Program-made: the position numbers and the translations under genes | DNA from: Patescibacteria group bacterium | GTDB lineage: Bacteria; Patescibacteriota; Microgenomatia; UBA8517 | Assembly: GCA_041742135.1 (NCBI GenBank) | Contig: JBGSJG010000004.1 | Coordinates: 299,773 to 363,772 of the forward strand | Length of the DNA: 64,000 bases | Reading direction: 5' to 3' | Notes under the pieces: generated by a model | Told to the model about the DNA's origin: nothing | The model's input: the letters and a program-made list of their open reading frames with translations, nothing else | The model's database searches: none | In this document: positions 2,124-43,039 of the stretch, in pieces | Numbering within the stretch: the stretch's first letter is position 1 | Layout: each line of letters opens with the position of its first letter

Positions 2124-2735
2124 ATGAGGATCGTAAAGCCTGTGGCAGATGTTATCGACGCTTTCAGTAAGCTCCCTGGCATTGGTCCTAAAACCGCTCA
2201 AAGATTGGCATATTATTTACTTCATGTTCCTCAGACTGAACTCGATTCTTTTGCGAACTCACTTGCAAACCTACGCAAAAATACGCTATTATGCTCGACT
2301 TGCAAAAATGTGGCGCTCGCGGACCCTTGTGAGTTTTGCGGAAGCCCAAGCCGAGACAAGTCAACTGTATTGGTCGTCGAGCAACCTTTGGATATTTTGG
2401 CATTTGAGCGGACCAACAAATATCAAGGCGTTTATCATGTTTTGCACGGGGCGATTAATCCATTGGACAATATCGGTCCCGATGAAATTTTTACGGAGGA
2501 GTTAGTCAAGCGCGTGAAGGGAACAAACGGTCACACGATTAACGAAGTGATTATCGCCACAAATCCGACAATGGAAGGAGAAGCAACAGCAATGTATTTG
2601 GCTAAACAACTTAAAAACCAAAATTCAAAATTGAAAATCTCCAGGCTTGGAATGGGAATTCCGACGGGGGCTTATCTTGAGTTTGCAGACGAGATGACTA
2701 TTCGCGAATCTTTGGAAGGAAGGCGAGAGCTATGA
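2124..2735 (+). CDS. recR: recombination protein RecR
   Basis: 203 aa with an N-terminal HhH, the C4 zinc finger 'CSTCKNVALADPCEFCGS' and a Toprim region. Confidence 0.92.
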   Translation: MRIVKPVADVIDAFSKLPGIGPKTAQRLAYYLLHVPQTELDSFANSLANLRKNTLLCSTCKNVALADPCEFCGSPSRDKSTVLVVEQPLDILAFERTNKYQGVYHVLHGAINPLDNIGPDEIFTEELVKRVKGTNGHTINEVIIATNPTMEGEATAMYLAKQLKNQNSKLKISRLGMGIPTGAYLEFADEMTIRESLEGRREL

Positions 2736-3196
2736 AGCCAGTAGCAGGACAGGTGCAGCGAAGCGTACAGCAAGCCCGTGATGACGTGTTTAACGAGGCT
2801 GGAGCTTTTGCGCGAACTGCGCAAAGCCAAGTAACTGGAGTGGAAGCGCGGCCTGCAATTGGCCAAAGCACTCCACAACTTCCACCGGCTAATCAGTTTG
2901 CTACAACGCAAGAGTATTGGCAGGCGCAAGAGAGGCAAAACGAGGCAAGACTCGCAGAACTTCGCAAGTTTGTTCAAAACATAAAAAATCTTGACGAGGA
3001 GCAAAAGCGCGCCGAACAAATACGCGCGCAGCAAGAACAAGCTGTTGCCCAAGCTCAGGCAGCACAAATGCAAGAAACAGCCCGCGAAGAAAATAAGTCG
3101 GGCAATGTTTTATCTCGAGCCGTCAAGCGCATCAAAGGTCGTTTGGGCCAAGTCGGTAAAGGCAAAATGGAAAAAGGTAGAGGTGGAACAGGATAA
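2732..3196 (+). CDS. hypothetical Q/A-rich low-complexity protein
   Basis: 154 aa with a Gln/Ala/Glu-rich repetitive tail (QAQERQNEARLAELRKF...AQQEQAVAQAQAAQMQE). Its start overlaps the recR stop (ATGA). Confidence 0.45.
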   Translation: MKPVAGQVQRSVQQARDDVFNEAGAFARTAQSQVTGVEARPAIGQSTPQLPPANQFATTQEYWQAQERQNEARLAELRKFVQNIKNLDEEQKRAEQIRAQQEQAVAQAQAAQMQETAREENKSGNVLSRAVKRIKGRLGQVGKGKMEKGRGGTG

Positions 3197-4587
3197 TGAA
3201 ATTATACAATTCGTTAACCGGTAAGATTGAAGAATTTAAGCCTATTGAAGAAGGTTTGGTGAGGATGTATGCCTGCGGAATGACGGTTTATGATTTTGCT
3301 CACATTGGACATGGGAGAAAATATATAAATGATGACGTGCTTAGGCGCGCACTTGTGTATTTAGGCTACAGCGTTAAGCACGTCCAAAATGTAACTGATG
3401 TTGGGCATTTGGTCTCAGATGGTGATGAAGGTGAAGATAAGCTGGAAAAGGGAGCCAGAAAATACGGCAAGACTGTTTGGGAAGTCGCTGAGTTTTACAC
3501 AAAACATTTTTATGATTCGATGGACAAGCTCAACGTTTTGCGCCCTGACGTTATTGCAAAGGCCACAGATCACATCAAAGAGCAGATTGACTTAATTCAG
3601 AAGCTTTTTGAAAACGGTTTTGCTTACGATACACCAGAAGCAGTTTATTTTGATGTCTCGCACTTTGAAGGCTATGCTACCTTGTTTGGCAGGCAAGAAC
3701 TTGAGGATAAAAAAGCGGCTGTGCGTGAAGAGGTACACACTGATCCAAATAAGAAAAACCCTGCTGATTTTGCCTTGTGGTTCAAGCGAGTAGGGCGTTT
3801 TTCCGATCACGTTATGCACTGGGATAGTCCTTGGGGTGATGGCTTTCCCGGCTGGCACATTGAGTGCTCTGCTATGAGCATGAAGTATTTGGGGGATCAA
3901 CTTGATATCCACACAGGTGGCGAAGATCATATTCCCGTTCACCATCCTAACGAAATTGCCCAGAGCGAGGCCGCGACTGGCAAGCACCCTTTTGTTGGCT
4001 ATTGGTTCCATACCACTTTTTTGACGGTGGACGGAACTAAAATGAGCAAAAGCCTTGGAAACTTCTATACCATCGAGGACGTAATTGAAAAAGGCTATGA
4101 CCCCTTGGCTTTGAGATACTTGTTTTTGACTGCGCACTACCGAAAGCGGATCAACTTTACCTGGGACGCTTTGGAGGCGGCGCAAAATGCTCTTAATCGT
4201 TTGCGCGAATTTGTTCTCGTTTACAAAAGTAAAAAAACTGACGAGCGTACCATGTTGTCTGCTGAAAAGCTGGATAAAGTGGATCATTTTCGAGCGGAAT
4301 TTGGGAACTATGTTTCAGATGATCTTAAGATTCCGCAAGCTTTAGCTGTCTTATGGGATGTGGTTAAAAGCAATATTCCAGATGTCGATAAGCTGGATTT
4401 GATCTTAAACTTCGATGAAGTTTTGGGCTTAAGATTGGGAGAGCTTGAGACTGAAAAAATCAATCCTGAAGTTATGGAACTTGAAGATGAGCGTAGTCGC
4501 TTGCGAGCCGAAGGTAAGTATGAAGAGGCAGACAAAATAAGAGATAGACTTGCCAGTGAGTTTGGTATTAAAGTTAAAGATAAGTGA
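3196..4587 (+). CDS. cysS: cysteine--tRNA ligase
   Basis: 463 aa with the class I aaRS motifs 'HIGHGR' and 'KMSKSLGN' plus a CysRS anticodon-binding C-terminal region. Confidence 0.93.
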   Translation: MKLYNSLTGKIEEFKPIEEGLVRMYACGMTVYDFAHIGHGRKYINDDVLRRALVYLGYSVKHVQNVTDVGHLVSDGDEGEDKLEKGARKYGKTVWEVAEFYTKHFYDSMDKLNVLRPDVIAKATDHIKEQIDLIQKLFENGFAYDTPEAVYFDVSHFEGYATLFGRQELEDKKAAVREEVHTDPNKKNPADFALWFKRVGRFSDHVMHWDSPWGDGFPGWHIECSAMSMKYLGDQLDIHTGGEDHIPVHHPNEIAQSEAATGKHPFVGYWFHTTFLTVDGTKMSKSLGNFYTIEDVIEKGYDPLALRYLFLTAHYRKRINFTWDALEAAQNALNRLREFVLVYKSKKTDERTMLSAEKLDKVDHFRAEFGNYVSDDLKIPQALAVLWDVVKSNIPDVDKLDLILNFDEVLGLRLGELETEKINPEVMELEDERSRLRAEGKYEEADKIRDRLASEFGIKVKDK

Positions 4588-37811: not shown

Positions 37812-38183
37812 CTTCTTTACTTCAATATATATTTTTAGCGTATAATTGTTGTACTTATAACAAGATGTCAGGCTCAAACTTAGCAGTCGGAACTCACAGG
37901 ACGGGACTAAACCTCCAGGCTCAGACTATCAGTTAGAGCCAGAACCAACATTTTCTGAAGGGAAAGTAATCCCATTTCAGTTTACAGTGATGATGCCTCC
38001 ACCGAGGTATTATCCGATGATTTTGGAGAGGGATGAGAAGGGGAGGATAGTAAACTCCAAGTTTCCTGAAATGCAGTTTTAATAAAAAAAGATTGATTTT
38101 TCGAGGTAAATGATTGTTTTATATGTTGCCTTTTGATACACTACAAGCATATTTTACAAAAGACACTGCCTTAAAATTATGAA

Positions 38184-39266
38184 ATGAATAACGGAAATAC
38201 AAAGTTCATTATAGGCGGTGGTATATCGGGACTTATATACGGCTTCTATAATAGAGACTTTCAAATTATTTCACCTGACGTTGGAGGGAAGCTAAAAAAT
38301 AGCTATCTTACTTCTACAATACTTCTGCACGATACTCCAGAAACAAAAAGATTACTTCAAGACTTGAAAATAGTACCAGAACCAAAAGCACAGGTAATGC
38401 GATATTTCTATCAAGATAAGCTTCAAGAAAATATTCCAGCAAATCTAAAAGAGCTTATGGTTGCAAAGAAACTTACCCCTTGGGAAGAATTAAACAAACT
38501 TAATTTTGAATTTAAGATTACCGACACCACTCTTTCAACAGATGATGTATACATACCTATTTTTAAAATTTCTCTCGACAAAGTTATAAAAGCTCTAGCG
38601 AAAGAAGTAAAGATTGTAAAAGATAAAGTGGTAAGAATCACAGAAGACGAAATTATAACCGAAAAAGGACGCTATCGTTATACAGATCTGATTTCTACAA
38701 TACCAGCACCAGTCTTTTGGAAAATATATGGTCGAGAGAAAAATTTGAAGTCTTTACCTGAGACATTCGTATTAGCTAAATCTAATCCAGTAGAAAAAAC
38801 GAATTTGCATTGGGATCTAGTCTATTTCTTGGACAAGAAAATACCATATACACGGGTCAATAGATATTCAAACGATTCTTATTTATATGAGTTCACAGGT
38901 GAATTAAACAAAACTCAAATAAAGAAATTTCTGCCTAAAGCTGAAATTTTAAACGTTTATACTGATCGTTACGGAATTGTAATCACTGATCTTAACAATA
39001 TTCCTCCTCCCAATGTGCGTTTTGTTGGCAGATTTGCGACATGGAATCACACTTGTAAAGTTCAAGATGTTGTTAAAGATTCGATAGCAAGATATGATTT
39101 TCTTTCAATTTGGAATAAACAGAAAGAATTTAATGCCAACTTTTTCGATTTTAATGTACGTGATATCGAACTCCAACAAAAAACTAACCAAGGAGTTCGT
39201 ACTACATATAGAAGACGAAGCCCACGAACTTTTAAGAGAAGTGAATTGGAAAATGGGCCAATATAA
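38184..39266 (+). CDS. FAD/NAD(P)-binding Rossmann-fold protein, UDP-galactopyranose-mutase/amine-oxidase-like
   Basis: N-terminal dinucleotide-binding 'KFIIGGGISGLIYGF' (GxGxxG). C-terminal 'VRFVGRFATWNHTCKVQDVVKDSIA' resembles the Glf C-terminus 'FIGRLGTYRYLDMD..IA'. The last ~170 nt (39094-39266) overlap the MazG-like ORF in another frame and translate to low-quality sequence, so the true stop is uncertain. Confidence 0.5.
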   Translation: MNNGNTKFIIGGGISGLIYGFYNRDFQIISPDVGGKLKNSYLTSTILLHDTPETKRLLQDLKIVPEPKAQVMRYFYQDKLQENIPANLKELMVAKKLTPWEELNKLNFEFKITDTTLSTDDVYIPIFKISLDKVIKALAKEVKIVKDKVVRITEDEIITEKGRYRYTDLISTIPAPVFWKIYGREKNLKSLPETFVLAKSNPVEKTNLHWDLVYFLDKKIPYTRVNRYSNDSYLYEFTGELNKTQIKKFLPKAEILNVYTDRYGIVITDLNNIPPPNVRFVGRFATWNHTCKVQDVVKDSIARYDFLSIWNKQKEFNANFFDFNVRDIELQQKTNQGVRTTYRRRSPRTFKRSELENGPI

Positions 39267-39468
39267 ACATATAGAAGTTGATAGGGCAAGGTTATTAGAA
39301 GAGTGGATTGATGTTTTTAAGTATTGGCTTGGATTAGGTAATGTATGGGGATTTACTCTGGAAGATTTTGTAAATGAGTTTTGGAGAAAGTCGTCAATTG
39401 TGGATGAACGTTTTAAACAATATTTCAAAGATAAAAGTAAAAAAGATGATGACAAAAGCAGTGGTTAA
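39094..39468 (+). CDS. MazG-like / all-alpha NTP pyrophosphohydrolase (dimeric dUTPase-like)
   Basis: 'HIEDEAHELLREVNWK' (helix 1, ExxE) and 'RARLLEEWIDVFKYWLGLG...FTLEDFVNEFWRK' (helix 2, EExxD then K...R) match the MazG/dimeric-dUTPase core. The ORF is intact in frame 1 from ATG 39094, with alternative starts at 39133 and 39253. Confidence 0.55.
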   Translation: MIFFQFGINRKNLMPTFSILMYVISNSNKKLTKEFVLHIEDEAHELLREVNWKMGQYKHIEVDRARLLEEWIDVFKYWLGLGNVWGFTLEDFVNEFWRKSSIVDERFKQYFKDKSKKDDDKSSG

Positions 39469-39501
39469 TGTTACTATAGTCAATATTAAATTATAATTAA
39501 T

Positions 39502-40431
39502 ATGCCTCATAATCCAAAAGCAAAAATCCATAAAAAACCTGCTGAAGTATTAAAAGGTGAAACTCCTCGATCAGAATTTGCCGACTCTCTTGATTCTGTA
39601 AAAGTTGATTTAATTTATTATCCAGATTCGAAGATTGATCTAACGGCCTACGCTTTTCAAAAAGCAACCTGGATGACCGATCCTTATATTCCCAACAAAG
39701 ACAAAAAGAGAGATAAAGAAATACTTAAAGATTTAAAGATACATGCATTTGAGAAAAAAGGCCTTCCTTTATCTCTGGAGCTTTATGATTTTGTTTTTTC
39801 CGTTTCGGGGATAACCAGACTTGTCACTCACCAGATTGTGCGAAATAGGATAGGCGCAACTTATTCCCAACAGTGTTCGGGAGATAAAGACTGGAGACAT
39901 CATAGGGTTTTGGTTCCAAGAAGTATTTATAAAAACAAAAAGATTTATGAAAAATTTAGATCTCAAGTCCTTGAAAACAAAAAACTATATGCAGACATGT
40001 TAGATACAATGGAAGTTCCAGTATTGGATGCTAGGAGGATTCTTCCTCACTGTCTAGAAACATTTATTTACGTAAAGTTTAATTTAGTTACTTTAGCTAC
40101 TTTTATACCAAAAAGAGATTGTGTGCAGACTCAAGAACCTGAAATGGTAATGGTTGCTAGGAGGATGAGAGAGGCGGTATTGAAGAAATTCCCGAATATT
40201 GAACCCATGCTTAGGAATAAGTGTAAAGATGGTAAGTGCTTCTATACCTTATCCGACAGACAAGTAGGTACATCGATGTTTGTGCCAGATAAGGATCATG
40301 ATTTTGACTATAATAAAAACAACTTCTTTTATGATAAGACAGTCCGTCAAATGGTATATGACTTACCAAAAGTGCCAAATGAATATTATATCGGATCTGA
40401 AAAAGTAACGAAAAAGAACTTTTTGAAATGA
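39502..40431 (+). CDS. ThyX-like flavin-dependent thymidylate synthase homologue (divergent, extended)
   Basis: 'ITRLVTHQIVRNRIGATYSQQCSGD' aligns with the ThyX motif 'ARQWFRHRIASYNELSGRY'. 'ARRILPHCLETFIYVKFNLVTLATFIPKR' aligns with '[29 protein letters not shown]'. At 309 aa it is larger than ThyX (~220 aa), and RHR is replaced by RNR. Confidence 0.72.
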   Translation: MPHNPKAKIHKKPAEVLKGETPRSEFADSLDSVKVDLIYYPDSKIDLTAYAFQKATWMTDPYIPNKDKKRDKEILKDLKIHAFEKKGLPLSLELYDFVFSVSGITRLVTHQIVRNRIGATYSQQCSGDKDWRHHRVLVPRSIYKNKKIYEKFRSQVLENKKLYADMLDTMEVPVLDARRILPHCLETFIYVKFNLVTLATFIPKRDCVQTQEPEMVMVARRMREAVLKKFPNIEPMLRNKCKDGKCFYTLSDRQVGTSMFVPDKDHDFDYNKNNFFYDKTVRQMVYDLPKVPNEYYIGSEKVTKKNFLK

Positions 40432-40898
40432 CAGAACATGAACAGCGTATAACAATACTGTCATTTGAAGGTCCCGATAAGGTAGGTAAGTCCACCCTTA
40501 TTAGAGAAGTTAATAGAGCAGCCAACTATCGTTTTTTATGTATAGACCGTTTTACTGGTTCAGCCTGGGTCTATGATAAATTGTCTGGAAGAAGAGATAG
40601 AACTGATTCGATCAGTACGGCAGAGGGTGAGCTAAGCAGACTTGAAAATGTTGACGTTTTAAATGTACTACTTTCGTGCGATCCCGAAGTTCTTAGGGAA
40701 AGGATTAGACAAGAAGATGAATACAGTGATGCAAGGTTAGAGCATCTTGATCAGGCGTTAGAGTATTATAGGGAGTATGCCCAAGAGATAGCTAGACTGC
40801 CTATTATCGAGATAGATACAACTGACAAGTCGGTAGAAGATACTGTTCAAGAGATATTATCTAAAGTTGAATCATATGAGCAAAGCGATAATCGATAA
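40428..40898 (+). CDS. thymidylate-kinase-like P-loop dNMP kinase (shortened)
   Basis: P-loop 'ILSFEGPDKVGKST' resembles Tmk 'IxFEGxDGxGKTT'. 'LCIDRFTGSAWVY' resembles the Tmk DRY/DRH region. At 156 aa it lacks the ~55 aa NMP-binding insert of canonical Tmk. It overlaps the upstream stop (ATGA). Confidence 0.62.
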   Translation: MTEHEQRITILSFEGPDKVGKSTLIREVNRAANYRFLCIDRFTGSAWVYDKLSGRRDRTDSISTAEGELSRLENVDVLNVLLSCDPEVLRERIRQEDEYSDARLEHLDQALEYYREYAQEIARLPIIEIDTTDKSVEDTVQEILSKVESYEQSDNR

Positions 40899-41421
40899 AA
40901 TTCAAGAAATAACCGAATCCATAAAAAAAGATGGTAAGGAAGTGAATGGTACGAAAGAATTAAGTGGAGTTGTTATATCAAAACTTGATGTATCAAAAAT
41001 GGACTTGATCAAGGAAGAGAACGCAGTACGAGATTACTACTCAAAGCTTGGTATAAATACACAAGCCATCAGGAGTTTGGAACATAATCTATATGAGTTT
41101 ATTTATAGAGGATTAAGACAAGTGGTAGAACAAACTTTGTACTTCGATAAAATCCAGGACTATACCTCAAGAAGATTTGTTTTTTCTACGACCGATTGTA
41201 TTTCTCATGTGCAGATTCTCTATAGGCCAGGCCAAGCTGAGTTATTTATGTATGTAAGGAGTACTGATGTTGTAAAGCTTTTCCCTTGGGATATGCTTTT
41301 TGCTTGCAAATTACTAAATAGAGTTTTACTGGAATCTGGATTTCCCGAAGCCAAAAAGAGATTTGTTACGATTATGGTGGCTTCAGCCCATTTTTATCTT
41401 AAGCCAGCTGCAATGTACTAA
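40867..41421 (+). CDS. minimal thymidylate-synthase (ThyA) fold protein
   Basis: 'TSRRFVFS', 'DCISHVQ', 'LFMYVRSTDVVKLFPWDMLFACKLL' and 'SAHFY' align with the ThyA motifs 'SRRIIVSAWN', 'PCH.FFQFYV', '[26 protein letters not shown]' and 'DTHLY'. At 184 aa it lacks the ThyA C-terminal ~50 aa. Confidence 0.55.
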   Translation: MNHMSKAIIDKIQEITESIKKDGKEVNGTKELSGVVISKLDVSKMDLIKEENAVRDYYSKLGINTQAIRSLEHNLYEFIYRGLRQVVEQTLYFDKIQDYTSRRFVFSTTDCISHVQILYRPGQAELFMYVRSTDVVKLFPWDMLFACKLLNRVLLESGFPEAKKRFVTIMVASAHFYLKPAAMY

Positions 41422-41423
41422 TA

Positions 41424-42017
41424 ATGAAATATGAACGATTGACTGAGCTGAATACTCAAATTCAAGCAACTTCAAGGTGTGATAATGATACAACTCCTGT
41501 AATAAACGAATTGAGGCCTTCTCAGAGATATCTAATTATCAGTTCAGATCCATCTTCTGATACTGATAAAGACAAAGACGTATTAGATAAACACTCTGGT
41601 TTCGAAGAGAGGGTAATTTCTTTAGTGTTCTTTGGCTCTGATGATGCAGAGAGCTTGGAGCGAGTAAGAGCTGATTATCAAGGATATAAAGACAAATTTT
41701 TAAACAATTTTTATTGGACGCACTACTCCAAATGTTATGCAAAAGGTAATCCTGATAGTTTTTGGGCAGATAAGTTTCTGAAGCAAGAAATAGAGTTGTT
41801 TGAACCAGAATTAATTGTAATATTTGGCAGTAAACCAGCTGATTTCTTATTTGGGAAGGGCAAGCTAAAAGATAGGGTCAATACTGTAATGGAATATGAA
41901 GGTGTCCCCACAATTTGCTCGCTTCATCCTTCTAGAGATTGGAACATGTTTAGGAGAGAGGAATACGAATTTTCTGAAACTTGGGTTTTGATTCGTTCGA
42001 AAATAGATATAGAATAA
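41424..42017 (+). CDS. uracil-DNA glycosylase superfamily (family-4-like) protein lacking canonical motif A
   Basis: 'FYWTHYSKCYAKGNP' is close to 'YITNIVKCRPP'. 'WADKFLKQEIELFEPELIVIFGSKPADFLFG' is close to 'DKWLLKQIELIAPQIIVPLGAVAAEFFLG'. 'ICSLHPS' is close to the motif B 'HPAYLLR'. The motif A position reads 'LVFFGSDDAE' rather than 'GEGPG'. Confidence 0.58.
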   Translation: MKYERLTELNTQIQATSRCDNDTTPVINELRPSQRYLIISSDPSSDTDKDKDVLDKHSGFEERVISLVFFGSDDAESLERVRADYQGYKDKFLNNFYWTHYSKCYAKGNPDSFWADKFLKQEIELFEPELIVIFGSKPADFLFGKGKLKDRVNTVMEYEGVPTICSLHPSRDWNMFRREEYEFSETWVLIRSKIDIE

Positions 42018-42021
42018 AATT

Positions 42022-42477
42022 ATGAAACCATTACAAATCACCTCAGTTATTGTGGTATTAAAGTGTCAAGACAATTTTTTGCTAGTCCAAAGAAGTGATA
42101 ATGACGACATTTTTCCAGGTAAGTGGCAGAATATGGGTGGAAAGATTGAGCTTGGAGAAACAGTAGAAAATGCAATAAAAAGAGAAGTTAAAGAAGAAAT
42201 TGGTCTTGAGGTAAAATCTCATCCAATATTTTTACAAAGTTACTCTTGGAAGAAAGATGATGACTCTCCAGTAAGACTTGGGTTAATTTTTTTGATTAAT
42301 TTGGAAGGCAAACAAGATAATTATAAGATTCAGCTTGATGAAGAATTATCTAATTATGCTTGGGTTGATCTAAAAGAAGCTGAAGTAATGAATAAAGACG
42401 ACAAACTGATTGGTAAAGATAGTCCTACAGGCACTTTTGGGCAATTATCTCAAATTAAATTGCTTAATGGAAAATAA
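42022..42477 (+). CDS. Nudix hydrolase
   Basis: A complete Nudix box 'GGKIELGETVENAIKREVKEEIGL' (GX5EX7REUXEEXGU). Confidence 0.85.
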   Translation: MKPLQITSVIVVLKCQDNFLLVQRSDNDDIFPGKWQNMGGKIELGETVENAIKREVKEEIGLEVKSHPIFLQSYSWKKDDDSPVRLGLIFLINLEGKQDNYKIQLDEELSNYAWVDLKEAEVMNKDDKLIGKDSPTGTFGQLSQIKLLNGK

Positions 42478-43039
42478 AGTTAAAATCAGACTCAGATTGG
42501 TGATTATCAAGGAAGATAAACTTCTTGCATACTACGATTCAATAGATGATTACTATTTTTATATCGGAGGTAAACTTGAGTTTGGTGAGACTATTGAGGA
42601 TGGATGGAAAAGAGAAATAAAAGAAGAGCAAAGATACATCAAAGCCTATGGAGCTGAAATGATTGATTCTGAGCAATTGAAAGAATCTACCGAAGATTTG
42701 AAAAAGCAGAAAAAGTCTATTGAACAACAAATTTTATCAATGCAAAAAGACACTGTTGTTGAGCATTTTGACTATCCAGAAGACAAAGAAATTGAAGAAT
42801 TTTGCAAAATAGCCCATAAGGTTGTTGGTAATATGGGCTTTGAGGCTAAACAGTCAATTGTCCGAAAGGTGGTAGATACGATAGTAGGAACGCAAAACGA
42901 CATAAAAGTATATGGCCATTTACCCTTGAATACGAGTATAATTGCAAATGTATGGAAAGGAGGTATCCAAGATGTCAAGTTCGAAACTAGCAGTCGGAAT
43001 AGTTGGCTTACCAAATGTGGGGAAGTCCACGCTTTTTAA
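42467..43039 (+). CDS. Nudix-like protein with incomplete Nudix box (possibly degenerate)
   Basis: 'GGKLEFGETIEDGWKREIKEE' is not followed by xGU. The C-terminal half is charged and coiled-coil-like. The last ~67 nt overlap the ychF RBS and start. Start taken at MENKVKIR (42467). Confidence 0.35.
   Translation: MENKVKIRLRLVIIKEDKLLAYYDSIDDYYFYIGGKLEFGETIEDGWKREIKEEQRYIKAYGAEMIDSEQLKESTEDLKKQKKSIEQQILSMQKDTVVEHFDYPEDKEIEEFCKIAHKVVGNMGFEAKQSIVRKVVDTIVGTQNDIKVYGHLPLNTSIIANVWKGGIQDVKFETSSRNSWLTKCGEVHAF

Follow-up and report, generated by a model that had tools for sequence, protein, structure and literature searches.

A probable UDG-fold glycosylase of an apparently undescribed family in a putative pyrimidine-nucleotide gene cassette of a Patescibacteria group bacterium

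The window, a stretch of 64,000 nucleotides from a Patescibacteria group bacterium, contains a low-GC island at 38109..42464 with a GC content of 0.33-0.36, compared with 0.41-0.46 in the flanks. Over exactly this interval the DNA is 88% identical at the nucleotide level to a related locus (L001), and the upstream flanks of the two are unrelated; the upstream genes in the window are ordinary metabolic genes. A recombinase remnant adjoins the island. The island carries a gene cassette, all on the + strand, in the order MazG-like fusion, ThyX-like, Tmk-like, ThyA-like, glycosylase and NUDIX. Start and stop codons abut or overlap throughout; the glycosylase gene begins 2 nt after the ThyA-like gene and stops 4 nt before the NUDIX gene. 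This spacing confirms the operon link of the glycosylase to the ThyX-, ThyA- and Tmk-like genes that a first-pass annotation of the sequence had proposed, and the linkage is conserved in most relatives.

The first cassette gene (38184..39468, + strand; ORFs 38184..39266 and 39094..39468) is a Rossmann plus MazG/dimeric-dUTPase-like fusion. In relatives it encodes about 427 amino acids, with an N-terminal GxGxxG Rossmann domain and a C-terminal MazG/dimeric-dUTPase-like domain; comparison with the intact 427-aa L001 copy shows that in the window it is split by an apparent +1 frameshift in an A6 run (39178..39183). It matches dUTPase_2 in Pfam and an NTP pyrophosphohydrolase in PHROG, while its N-terminal Rossmann domain has no PDB or Pfam match. 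When the gene product was compared with E. coli Glf (UDP-galactopyranose mutase), hhalign gave 8.4% over a 17-residue 'vPYTR' match and the global alignment a z of 1.7. The second gene (39502..40431, + strand) encodes a divergent ThyX-like homologue of flavin-dependent thymidylate synthase of 309 aa (Pfam Thy1, 81.5 bits). Its NCBIfam thyX score of 57.8 bits lies below the cut-off of 87.9, and aligned to M. tuberculosis ThyX it shows RNR...S...SGD in place of the signature RHRxxSxxxxSxR. Copies of this gene are 64-97% identical across CPR classes. The third gene (40428..40898, + strand) encodes a truncated Tmk-like P-loop kinase of 156 aa, recognised by Pfam Thymidylate_kin and the PHROG thymidylate kinase, in which little is left of the stretch that separates the P-loop from the DR(Y/F) motif: residues 38-143 match profile positions 84-185 of 185 only, and the NCBIfam dTMP kinase model gives 25.7 bits, below its cut-off of 83.

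The gene directly upstream of the glycosylase (40876..41421, + strand; alternative TTG start at 40867) encodes a mini ThyA-fold protein of 181 aa (AF2 pLDDT 88), which keeps the catalytic Cys (C108) and the RSxD motif. At the position of E. coli ThyA Asn177 it has Asp139, a dCMP-specificity signature according to the signature positions given for ThyA-type enzymes (PMC13326640); the protein does not carry the D169N substitution that marks 5-hydroxy-dCMP synthases. Its best Foldseek matches are the phage HY126 dCMP hydroxylase AfhB (9iqu, 9iqc), followed by ThyA enzymes and MilA, and HMMER aligns it to T4 dCMP hydroxymethylase. The ThyA-like family has 49 members only, on the same contigs as the glycosylase. 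The last cassette gene (42022..42477, + strand) encodes a NUDIX hydrolase of 151 aa (Pfam NUDIX, 76 bits) whose best NCBIfam matches are NudI, MutT and NudG-type (d)NTP pyrophosphatases. A NUDIX gene also follows the glycosylase at L001, L003, L012, L013, L018 and L019 and at many metagenome loci. In deep-branching cassettes a GT2 glycosyltransferase gene lies between the two; it is absent from the window cassette and from many others. Because of the aberrant ThyX, the cut-down kinase, the dCMP-type ThyA-like protein and the GT2, the cassette appears to differ from ordinary dTMP synthesis.

The 197-aa ORF at 41424..42017 (+ strand) is a real gene encoding a protein with the UDG fold, since Pfam UDG (PF03167) matches it above threshold (28.3 bits vs a gathering score of 24.3), the AlphaFold2 model has a pLDDT of 95.6 (pTM 0.92), the nearest solved structures belong to family 4, and hhalign aligns the glycosylase family to 14 canonical family-4-type sequences with a probability of 99.6% (E=1.2e-23). 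The profile of the family matches the T. thermophilus family-4 UDG 1ui0 at E=1.4e-10, and the likeness to UDGs lies well above chance level. Foldseek reaches a probability of 1.00 for many UDG structures, the best being family-4 UDGs and UdgX (E 4e-9 to 1e-4, TM up to 0.69), and both profile and structure support the four-stranded parallel beta-sheet of the alpha/beta UDG fold. The first-pass annotation had placed the protein in the UDG superfamily, nearest to family 4, and had suggested structure prediction as a check; Pfam, profile, AF2, Foldseek and hhalign agree on the assignment, and the AF2 model with its Foldseek matches to family-4 UDGs upholds it. The strings it had quoted are all present, namely 'KC' (residues 103-104), 'DKFLKQEIEL' (116-125), 'PELIVIFG' (128-135), 'ADFLFG' (139-144), 'LHPS' (167-170) and 'FFGSDDAE' (69-76).

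The location of motif A had to be revised. The annotation had read 'FFGSDDAE' as standing at the position of GEGPG, whereas 'LIISSDPSSD' (residues 37-46) aligns with 'IGE(A/G)PGxxE' in three independent alignments (HMMER, MAFFT and hhalign). The true motif A is thus S40-S41-D42-P43-S44 (41541..41555, + strand). SSDPS directly follows strand beta-1 (residues 36-40 in the AF2 model), which is the place of motif A in every UDG, and the superfamily layout with motif A at the end of beta-1 and motif B before the last helix is retained, LHPS coming after strand 161-166. 'FFGSDDAE' (41628..41651, + strand) belongs instead to a family-specific helical insertion of about 15-20 residues; in the hhalign alignment residues ~60 to 78 are a gap relative to family 4. 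The secondary structure of the AF2 model likewise rules out 'FFGSDDAE' as motif A: between beta-1 and beta-2 the model has helices 59-70, 75-83 and 85-95, where family 4 has one helix, and the string covers the end of the first of these and the start of the second. Within the glycosylase family G71 and D73 of this segment are invariant. The 'GRPFVGKAG' loop, reported earlier as absent, differs in sequence only, since hhalign runs without a gap from motif A to S58-G59 and the segment at this place (SDTDKDKDVLDKHSG) is of equal length, with an unrelated acidic sequence.

Motif A is nevertheless non-canonical, as had been noticed, reading SSDPS instead of GE(A/G)PG. Among 58 scored homologues the variants are SSDPS (42), SLDPS (9), SLEPS (2) and SLNPS (2), and position 3 is Asp in 54. 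In the family-1 UNG motif A, GQDPY, the Asp is the water-activating residue (PMC5387724). SSDPS has Asp-Pro at the same positions and so does not look like a degenerate site; the catalytic residues appear to be rearranged rather than lost.

The pocket residues were assigned from sequence alignments. In 'YWTHYSKC' (residues 97-104; 41712..41735, + strand), which was placed by alignment, hhalign and homologue counts, His100 stands where family-4 'ITN(I/V)VKC' has its base-reading Asn, which is N82 in the S. tokodaii UDG (PMC11078745). This Asn is invariant in the 14 canonical family-4-type sequences aligned, and 60 of 62 homologues have His. Two residues could correspond to the base-stacking Phe, namely Leu54 according to hhalign and the invariant Phe60 one helical turn later. 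Motif B, 'LHPSRDWN' (residues 167-174; 41922..41945, + strand), keeps His168 in the alignments; after HPS, a family-specific RDWN loop replaces the family-4 xLLR, and H168, P169, S170, W173, N174 and R178 are invariant among family members. For the motif-2 His, and for the C5 gate formed by the Glu of family 4 or the Tyr of family 1, we follow PMC5387724. Given the His in place of the base-reading Asn and the small residues at both the family-1 and the family-4 C5-gating positions, a change in specificity is plausible.

The search for 4Fe-4S ligands that had been suggested earlier was successful for two of the four family-4 cysteines: C19 and C104, the retained cysteine of the 'KC' element, are present, while the place of the first is taken by a residue other than Cys and that of the fourth by W114/A115. 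All four are kept in about 12 of the 62 homologues and in all more distant relatives checked. With two of four ligands remaining, the cluster was probably lost in the sub-clade of the window gene, and it is predicted to be present in deep-branching members.

The window glycosylase has 62 homologues at 48-92% identity, and the family occurs in 8 of 185,579 species genomes, all of them CPR bacteria or DPANN archaea. Compared with one copy at dS 0.95, dN/dS is 0.045, a sign of strong purifying selection, which suggests that the enzyme is probably active. Of the two consequences that had been proposed for the altered motif A, changed specificity thus stands as plausible and loss of activity is unlikely, as Asp-Pro is arranged as in family-1 UNG, the motif-B His is kept and dN/dS is low.

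Judged by its motifs, the protein appears here as the founder of a UDG family not described before, with the signature 'SSDPS / YWTH / HPS(R/K)(D/N)WN'. The family fits none of UDG families 1-6, UdgX or Brig1. As regards family 4, Gly1, Glu2 and Gly5 of GE(A/G)PG are all replaced in SSDPS, the set of four cysteines (N-terminal CxxC, KC and the Cys before the 'L..EIE' helix) is incomplete, the base-reading Asn is replaced by His100, and the curated model TIGR00758 gives 17.8 bits vs a cut-off of 125.3. With the family-1 motifs GQDPY and HPSPLS it shares D-P and H-P-S alone, having no Gln, Tyr or Leu-loop sequence, and Foldseek matches to UNG-type or D4 proteins are weak (E at least 5e-3). Families 2 and 3 (MUG/TDG, SMUG1) have the motif A G(I/M)NPG with a catalytic Asn; here position 3 is Asp, and Foldseek gives E values of at least 2e-3 to SMUG1 and MUG. 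Neither the UdgX motif GEQPG nor an R-loop resembling KRRIH, with its cross-linking His, is found, and the UdgX model TIGR03914 scores 17.4 bits vs 189.95. Membership in the Brig1 family was ruled out by an hhalign probability of 1.6% against the Brig1 sequence from the supplement of PMC11078745.

The order of the cassette genes is kept in about 70% of loci (10 of 13-14 loci, and 17 of ~23 informative metagenome loci), spanning Microgenomates, Saccharimonadales, Shapirobacteria and other CPR lineages. At least five or six lineages also have copies of the glycosylase with identical pocket motifs that stand by themselves among housekeeping genes. Their neighbours include ribosomal protein L19, peptide deformylase and a P-type ATPase; S3Ae/S15 and an Asp/Lys/Asn-type class II tRNA synthetase; parB, topA and dprA; and Ham1 and a DNA-alkylation-repair gene. 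One such copy lies in a complete 710-kb Pacearchaeota genome, for which the ThyA-like family search found no ThyA-like partner. Two stand-alone copies adjoin another UDG-superfamily gene, which argues against plain redundancy with uracil removal. Sister clades, which have in common the His at the Asn site and an S-x-x-P-S motif, are found in loci for defence or DNA modification, namely a NurA-HerA-DruA operon, an island with ThsA_Macro and AAA_15, toxin-antitoxin clusters and a Dpd-like modification/restriction cluster. This pattern fits an antiviral modified-base enzyme as well as a repair enzyme. BREX genes, SIR2, an Eco57I-type methylase and TGT/Vut_1 are neighbours at other loci.

Searches for further elements gave little. 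Promoter and terminator scans across the cassette yielded no excess over shuffles, the 1.26-kb ORF-free spacer of L006 has no Rfam match, and among the defence models of PADLOC the cassette enzymes have weak kinase and NUDIX matches and no others. Literature searches found no publications on the cassette. A phage origin is unsupported, as there was no tblastn match in 50,697 phage records. The sole IMG/VR contig matching the glycosylase, ThyA-like and ThyX-like genes (92% identity to the window copy for the glycosylase, 97% for the other two) comes from the sample of L001, and BFVD yielded only generic phage family-4 UDGs and PolA fusions.

Due to its position in an operon with odd thymidylate-synthase-like, kinase and nucleotide-cleaning genes, the glycosylase probably excises an unusual pyrimidine from DNA. 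As to catalysis, substrate and cassette chemistry, we infer an active monofunctional DNA glycosylase that would descend from the Fe-S-containing family 4 and would have lost the cluster in the sub-clade of the window gene. The target pyrimidine would flip into a pocket at the C-terminal ends of beta-1 and beta-2, where Asp42 may position or activate the attacking water, cf. Asp64 of E. coli UNG. His168 would stabilise the oxyanion at O2 of the leaving base, the role that it has in families 1 and 4, His100 would take over from Asn in reading the O4/N3 edge of the base, and the invariant R/K-D/N-W-N loop after HPS may fill the helix gap. Motif A would have no C5 gate, with Ser or Leu at position 2 where family 4 has Glu and Ser at position 5 where family 1 has Tyr; the pocket should therefore take uracil as well as 5-substituted uracils, candidates being thymine opposite G, 5-hydroxymethyl-uracil and 5-hydroxy-uracil.

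The glycosylase could then serve to proofread the DNA within a mobile pyrimidine-nucleotide cassette whose other members are two dNTP pyrophosphatases (the MazG-like domain and NUDIX), the dCMP-type ThyA-like protein, the ThyX-like enzyme, a dNMP kinase and, in older versions, a glycosyltransferase. This would correspond to the set of enzymes with which T-even phages swap a canonical pyrimidine before replication, and the glycosylase would clear uracil-type bases arising in the cassette pathway by misincorporation or deamination. The copies that stand alone in housekeeping surroundings have identical pocket motifs, which supports a self-safe, repair-type specificity. An Fe-S-free glycosylase for uracil or 5-substituted uracil from a T4-like non-canonical pyrimidine pathway is thus the reading that we tentatively adopt, as a possibility held with clearly less than even confidence. 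A bolder version is very doubtful: the cassette would yield a C5-modified dC (or dU) triphosphate that is incorporated by the host polymerase, the canonical pyrimidine would be largely replaced in some CPR genomes, and the SSDPS glycosylase would be a dedicated editing or discrimination enzyme. If this were true, pre-replicative base replacement would for the first time be seen in a cellular organism.

It is unlikely, in our estimate, that the protein is a DNA glycosylase of the ordinary kind, acting on uracil only, in a cassette for ordinary thymidylate salvage. The MazG-like and NUDIX enzymes would then convert dCTP or dUTP to the monophosphate, the ThyA-like protein would bind or deaminate dCMP, ThyX would supply dTMP and the kinase dTDP, and the glycosylase would remove dU misincorporated from high dUMP/dUTP pools. 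CPR and DPANN genomes have a reduced nucleotide metabolism, which speaks for such a role, as do the family-4 ancestry, the UNG-like Asp with the motif-B His, the Pfam names of the neighbours (Thy1, Thymidylate_kin, dUTPase_2 and NUDIX) and the stand-alone copies in housekeeping settings. However, the salvage enzymes are not what would be expected: ThyX does not reach its equivalog cut-off, the kinase has lost the Tmk core, ThyA has 181 aa and the dCMP-type Asp, and the GT2 of older cassettes has no place in dTMP salvage. His at the site of the invariant family-4 Asn, the small residues at both C5-gating positions and the location of the cassette on a low-GC mobile island, extremely rare with 8 of 185,579 species genomes, are also at odds with it. 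An even less probable reading is that the cassette replaces the cell's own pyrimidine, probably cytosine, before replication, and that the glycosylase is a restriction arm that cuts the unmodified base from incoming DNA or from scavenged prey DNA. A glycosylase acting on a normal pyrimidine would have to lack the C5 gate and to have an altered base reader, as is the case here; the human UNG variants Y147A and N204D of Kavli et al. (1996) reportedly excise T and C. A dNTPase, a dCMP-signature ThyA-like protein, a dNMP kinase and a glycosyltransferase form a T4-like set, BREX genes, SIR2, the Eco57I-type methylase and TGT/Vut_1 occur as neighbours at other loci, and one sister clade lies inside the Dpd-like modification/restriction cluster. 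We know of no cellular organism with genome-wide replacement of a canonical base, however, and this reading is disfavoured because a normal-base glycosylase would be lethal where copies with the same pocket motifs stand alone, as they do in at least five or six lineages, including the complete genome for which no ThyA-like partner was found.

The existence of the UDG-fold defence glycosylases Brig1 (PMC11078745) and Brig2 (bioRxiv 10.1101/2025.10.29.685425) raises the prospect, to us a very doubtful one, of an antiviral enzyme for hypermodified phage pyrimidines, with the other operon enzymes attacking the same phage nucleotide in the pool. Brig1 is likewise nearest to the S. tokodaii family-4 UDG 4ZBY (PMC11078745), with its base-reading Asn also replaced, and the defence settings of the sister clades and the low-GC island beside a recombinase remnant would suit such a function. 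Against this, the glycosylase has no sequence relation to Brig1 (hhalign 1.6%) and no PADLOC match, its stand-alone copies have ribosomal and tRNA-synthetase genes as neighbours and do not lie in defence islands, and tight translational coupling to biosynthetic-type enzymes including a kinase would be unexpected for a pool-sanitising defence. The least probable case, and one to which we give hardly any credence, is that of an inert base-flipping DNA binder, as UdgX was once regarded, which would mark lesions or modified bases, or hand them on to another cassette enzyme such as the glycosyltransferase. Inactive family-4 paralogues are reported to be common (PMC5295032), motif A is non-canonical, the Fe-S cluster appears lost, and in deep-branching cassettes the GT2 gene directly follows the glycosylase. 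But the window cassette and many others keep the glycosylase without GT2, the motif A Asp-Pro and the motif B His are conserved as the family-1 catalytic pair, and the dN/dS of 0.045 speaks against an inert protein.

The UDG superfamily is a textbook example of one fold with different catalytic solutions. The present family would add a new natural combination beyond families 1-6 and UdgX, namely a family-4 scaffold with a family-1 Asp, a His base reader and no C5 gate. Since older members appear to carry the Fe-S cluster and younger ones to have lost it, the family provides a ready-made system to probe the contributions of the cluster and of the motif-A doublet. Its constant partners amount to a phage-style base-replacement toolkit in the chromosomes of ultra-small symbionts; the product of the operon and the target of the glycosylase could thus reveal a new DNA modification or repair need in CPR/DPANN, and the family could supply enzymes for modified-base detection.

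Among known systems, family-4 UDGa (T. thermophilus 1UI0, T. maritima 1L9G, S. tokodaii 4ZBY) has the same fold and gives the best structural and profile matches. In common are 'KC', the 'L..EIE...P..I..LG' core, the motif-B HPS and, in deep members, the four cysteines, whereas SSDPS, the His base reader, the unrelated sequence of the PFVG loop, two extra helices following this loop, RDWN and the presence of 2 of 4 Cys set the glycosylase apart. With family-1 UNG it shares Asp-Pro at motif A positions 3-4 and His-Pro-Ser in motif B, but its base reader is His, its fold is nearer to family 4, and motif A has neither Gln nor Tyr; without the Tyr, the thymine-excluding gate of UNG is missing. Brig1 and Brig2 resemble it in their family-4-like fold, remodelled pocket, replaced base-reading Asn (Glu147 in Brig1) and location on mobile AT-rich islands. 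Unlike it, Brig1 has the motif A GLNPG as well as Tyr121, the hhalign probability between the two is 1.6%, and Brig proteins act as single genes, whereas the glycosylase is found in a nucleotide-metabolism operon or among housekeeping genes. The T-even cytosine-replacement module comprises the dCTPase gp56, the dCMP hydroxymethylase gp42 or a 5-hydroxy-dCMP synthase, the dNMP kinase gp1 and DNA glycosyltransferases. The cassette contains the same enzyme classes, and its N177D ThyA-like member is nearest in fold to the phage enzyme AfhB, but this protein has only 181 aa and is without the D169N mark of 5hoC synthases. The cassette also differs in residing in cellular CPR chromosomes, with no match in the 50,697 phage records searched and only the same island in IMG/VR, and in bringing along a ThyX-like enzyme, a Rossmann-domain fusion and a UDG-fold glycosylase, all of which the phage modules lack.

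The ORF at 41424..42017 (+) was confirmed; it encodes a protein of 197 aa, in which every string quoted in the first-pass annotation was found. The assignment to the UDG superfamily made there is solid, since Pfam, PDB-sequence, hhalign, AlphaFold2 and Foldseek results agree. The Pfam UDG model scored 28.3 bits (gathering score 24.3), and the T. thermophilus family-4 UDG 1ui0 was matched at E=0.0015 by the single sequence and at E=1.4e-10 by a 34-sequence profile. Against 14 canonical family-4-type proteins, hhalign gave 99.6% (E=1.2e-23) over residues 3-174. The proposed structure prediction was carried out with AlphaFold2 on the family alignment (pLDDT 95.6, pTM 0.92) and upheld the fold. 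In a Foldseek search of the PDB, family-4 UDGs and UdgX took the top ranks (1ui0, 1l9g, 4zby; TM up to 0.69), and SMUG1, MUG, family 5 and poxvirus D4 scored much lower than family 4.

The catalytic motif A had been placed at 'FFGSDDAE' (residues 69-76), opposite GEGPG. This is refuted by HMMER, hhalign and a MAFFT alignment that took in a graded series of relatives, all of which put 'LIISSDPSSD' (37-46) on 'IGE(A/G)PGxxE'. In the AlphaFold2 model this segment comes after strand beta-1 (36-40), the invariable seat of motif A. 'FFGSDDAE' runs from the last residues of helix 59-70 into the first of helix 75-83, and lies in an insertion of about 15-20 residues, comprising helices 75-83 and 85-95, which according to the model and hhalign is absent from family 4. 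The 'GRPFVGKAG' loop, reported as missing, is there: hhalign aligns the stretch between motif A and S58-G59 gap-free, so the equivalent loop, which reads SDTDKDKDVLDKHSG, is unchanged in length. In the hhalign alignment, Leu54 stands opposite the canonical stacking Phe; the invariant Phe60, one turn later, is the other candidate for stacking on the base. Motif A is indeed non-canonical (SSDPS), as had been noticed, but its true site is residues 40-44.

In the alignment, motif A is S40-S41-D42-P43-S44. The 58 scored homologues carry mainly SSDPS (42), SLDPS (9), SLEPS (2) or SLNPS (2), and by these counts position 3 is Asp in 54/58. Motif B is retained as H168-P169-S170, followed by an invariant (R/K)(D/N)WN. 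A tight uracil pocket is defined by Glu in family 4 or Tyr in family 1 (PMC5387724); in the new proteins both positions are small (Ser/Leu at position 2 and Ser at position 5 of motif A). The Asn of 'ITN(I/V)VKC', reader of the Watson-Crick face (PMC11078745), is invariant across the canonical family-4-type set (n=14); His100 occupies its site here, as does His in 60/62 homologues. When the four 4Fe-4S ligands of family 4 were looked for, C19 and C104 were present and the other two cysteines gone. All four are kept in about 12/62 homologues and in every more distant relative checked; it follows that the cluster is ancestral, its loss having occurred in the window's sub-clade.

The protein did not reach the NCBIfam cut-offs for family 4 (17.8 bits, cut-off 125.3) or UdgX (17.4 bits, cut-off 190), the latter being the 'Family 7' of the literature, and it matched no PADLOC model. 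Kinship with Brig1 was rejected (hhalign 1.6% to the Brig1 sequence from the paper's supplement). When 1.84 billion cluster representatives were scanned exhaustively with HMMER, only 19 reached E<=1e-10, and the family is present in only 8/185,579 species genomes, of which six are labelled as CPR bacteria or a DPANN archaeon and two are contigs labelled 'uncultured Gammaproteobacteria'. Among relatives, motif A grades from GE(C/A)PG and GQAPG through SQAPS, SESPS and (T/S)RDPS to SSDPS, and His at the Asn site is present already in the S-x-x-P-S groups. The searches made of PMC and bioRxiv turned up no description of the family or of its operon. Arguably, this is a new family of a well-known superfamily; the surrounding operon may be the more novel object.

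The reported operon link to ThyX-, ThyA- and Tmk-like genes holds: the glycosylase is gene 5 (41424..42017 (+)) of six tightly packed genes, found in the same order elsewhere. They lie on an island with a GC content of 0.33-0.36 (flanks 0.41-0.46); window 38109..42464 is 88% identical in DNA to L001, another copy of the island, and the upstream flanks of the two are unrelated. Gene 1 (38184..39468) encodes a fusion protein, about 427 aa in relatives, with a C-terminal MazG/dimeric-dUTPase-like domain and an N-terminal GxGxxG Rossmann domain that had no match in Pfam or PDB. The window's copy is interrupted by a single additional A in an A6 run at 39178..39183 (CAACAAAAAACT vs CAACAAAAGCT in L001). 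Despite the split, the N-terminal part has a dN/dS of 0.031; either the frameshift arose very recently or the homopolymer was misread in sequencing. Gene 2 (39502..40431) is ThyX-like (Pfam Thy1 81.5 bits) and scores 57.8 against the thyX equivalog model, below its cut-off of 87.9. Its signature is RNR...S...SGD instead of RHRxxSxxxxSxR; by HMMER alignment to M. tuberculosis ThyX, neither the His nor the final Arg of the signature is conserved. The protein is extended at its C-terminus by about 75 residues, among them two invariant Cys (C241, C246). Gene 3 (40428..40898) encodes a Tmk-like kinase of 156 aa whose match to the Tmk profile is confined to the profile's second half; DR(F/Y) comes about 18 residues after the P-loop, most of the nucleoside-monophosphate-binding region being absent, and its best PADLOC match is 'VakA' (E=2e-9).

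Gene 4 encodes a ThyA-fold protein of 181 aa (AlphaFold2 pLDDT 88). Its top structural matches are AfhB (9iqu, 9iqc), the flavin-dependent dCMP hydroxylase of phage HY126, followed by thymidylate synthases and MilA. The best PDB sequence match, T4 dCMP hydroxymethylase, is weak (E=0.66) but in register; it makes C108 the catalytic Cys and equates 'RSTD' with QRSCD and 'PWD' with PFN. In this register from a weak match, Asp139 falls at ThyA Asn177, the dCMP-versus-dUMP determinant (PMC13326640). The D169N mark of 5-hydroxy-dCMP synthases was not found in gene 4. This family has only 49 members, on glycosylase-bearing contigs. Gene 6 is a NUDIX hydrolase (nearest types NudI, MutT and NudG in Pfam and NCBIfam). 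Across all cassette genes dN/dS is 0.015-0.045. The ORF that follows (42410..43039) contains a remnant of a large serine recombinase; 42613..43372 matches L001 15038..14253 in inverted orientation (recombinase 3' part and ychF 5' end), and about 5 kb of L001 nucleotide-hydrolase genes (MazG, HIT, NUDIX, pyrophosphatase) are missing from the window island, whose edge looks as if shaped by recombinase-mediated deletion or inversion.

The cassette gene order recurs in 10 of 13-14 loci in genomes and long contigs and in 17 of about 23 informative metagenome loci. Deep-branching four-Cys cassettes have a GT2 glycosyltransferase between glycosylase and NUDIX, directly after the former in L018 (10557..11393), L006 (8688..9527), L047, L048, L049 and L051, a hint that the product is glycosylated. 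In L048 and L060 the ThyA-like gene is followed by NUDIX and then the glycosylase, with GT2 next in L048. In a single lineage (L006/L007, 6739..8000), a 1.26-kb ORF-free, slightly GC-richer spacer without a match in Rfam separates the ThyA-like gene from the glycosylase. One cassette (L005) has TGT and Vut_1 immediately upstream (2595..3984). In L058 (5078..5646) a 42-residue C-terminal glycosylase remnant, 88% identical, precedes an intact NUDIX gene; evidently the cassette decays in some lineages.

Copies with unchanged pocket motifs also occur outside the cassette, singly among housekeeping genes. One, in a complete Pacearchaeota genome to which no cluster from the search for the ThyA-like family could be ascribed, adjoins Ham1 and DNA-alkylation-repair genes. 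Others lie in Parcubacteria, with parB on one side and another odd UDG, topA and dprA on the other; in Paceibacterota beside ribosomal protein L19, deformylase and a P-type ATPase; on an archaeal contig with S3Ae and S15; and on a 245-kb contig that also encodes a class II tRNA synthetase of the Asp/Lys/Asn type and another UDG. The atypical UDG-superfamily neighbours at L010 9578..10234 (-) and L052 5542..6108 (+) comprise one with a 'FINPT' motif A and no HPS and one that reads 'GESPA', with Glu at the Asn site; CPR genomes may thus contain pairs of glycosylases whose specificities complement each other. The sister clades (T/S)RDPS and SESPS are located in conflict loci: a NurA/HerA-like (DUF87)/DruA operon ending in a (T/S)RDPS-type UDG (L026, 3904..8663), a candidate for a defence system that includes a glycosylase; an island carrying D12 methylase, AAA_15 and ThsA_Macro genes; toxin-antitoxin clusters; and a Dpd-like cluster (L062, the P0074 locus) with TGT, DEAD/ResIII helicases, Vut_1 and two UDGs, namely a SESPS UDG with His at the Asn site and a second of 168 aa. 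UDG-fold genes in 7-deazaguanine-type modification clusters may merit a separate study.

What does the glycosylase act on? It shares with family 1 UNG the catalytic pair of motif A Asp and motif B His, on a scaffold that is family 4; because this pair is strongly conserved, we regard the protein as an active, monofunctional glycosylase. Its dN/dS of 0.045 against a copy with dS=0.95 shows it to be maintained, and probably active, rather than decaying, and an inert binder seems the most improbable of the alternatives. Two features, the absence of either C5 gate and His in place of Asn, argue for a pocket that would admit bases beyond uracil; plain dU repair as part of dTMP salvage we consider unlikely. 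The stand-alone copies in housekeeping surroundings speak against a normal base as the substrate, and restriction of unmodified DNA, with the host genome self-modified, appears decidedly unlikely. A Brig-like antiviral glycosylase, which the conflict loci of the sister clades bring to mind, is more doubtful still.

The most economical reading, which we hold tentatively, would be a glycosylase that repairs or edits bases of the uracil type (the proposed targets are U, T opposite G, 5hmU or 5hoU) which a T-even-like pathway would produce through deamination or misincorporation. Every cassette neighbour deviates from its housekeeping counterpart. A ThyA homologue and its kinase suffice to place modified C in E. 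coli DNA (PMC13326640), and the enzyme set formed by the cassette neighbours is the one with which T-even phages replace cytosine before replication.
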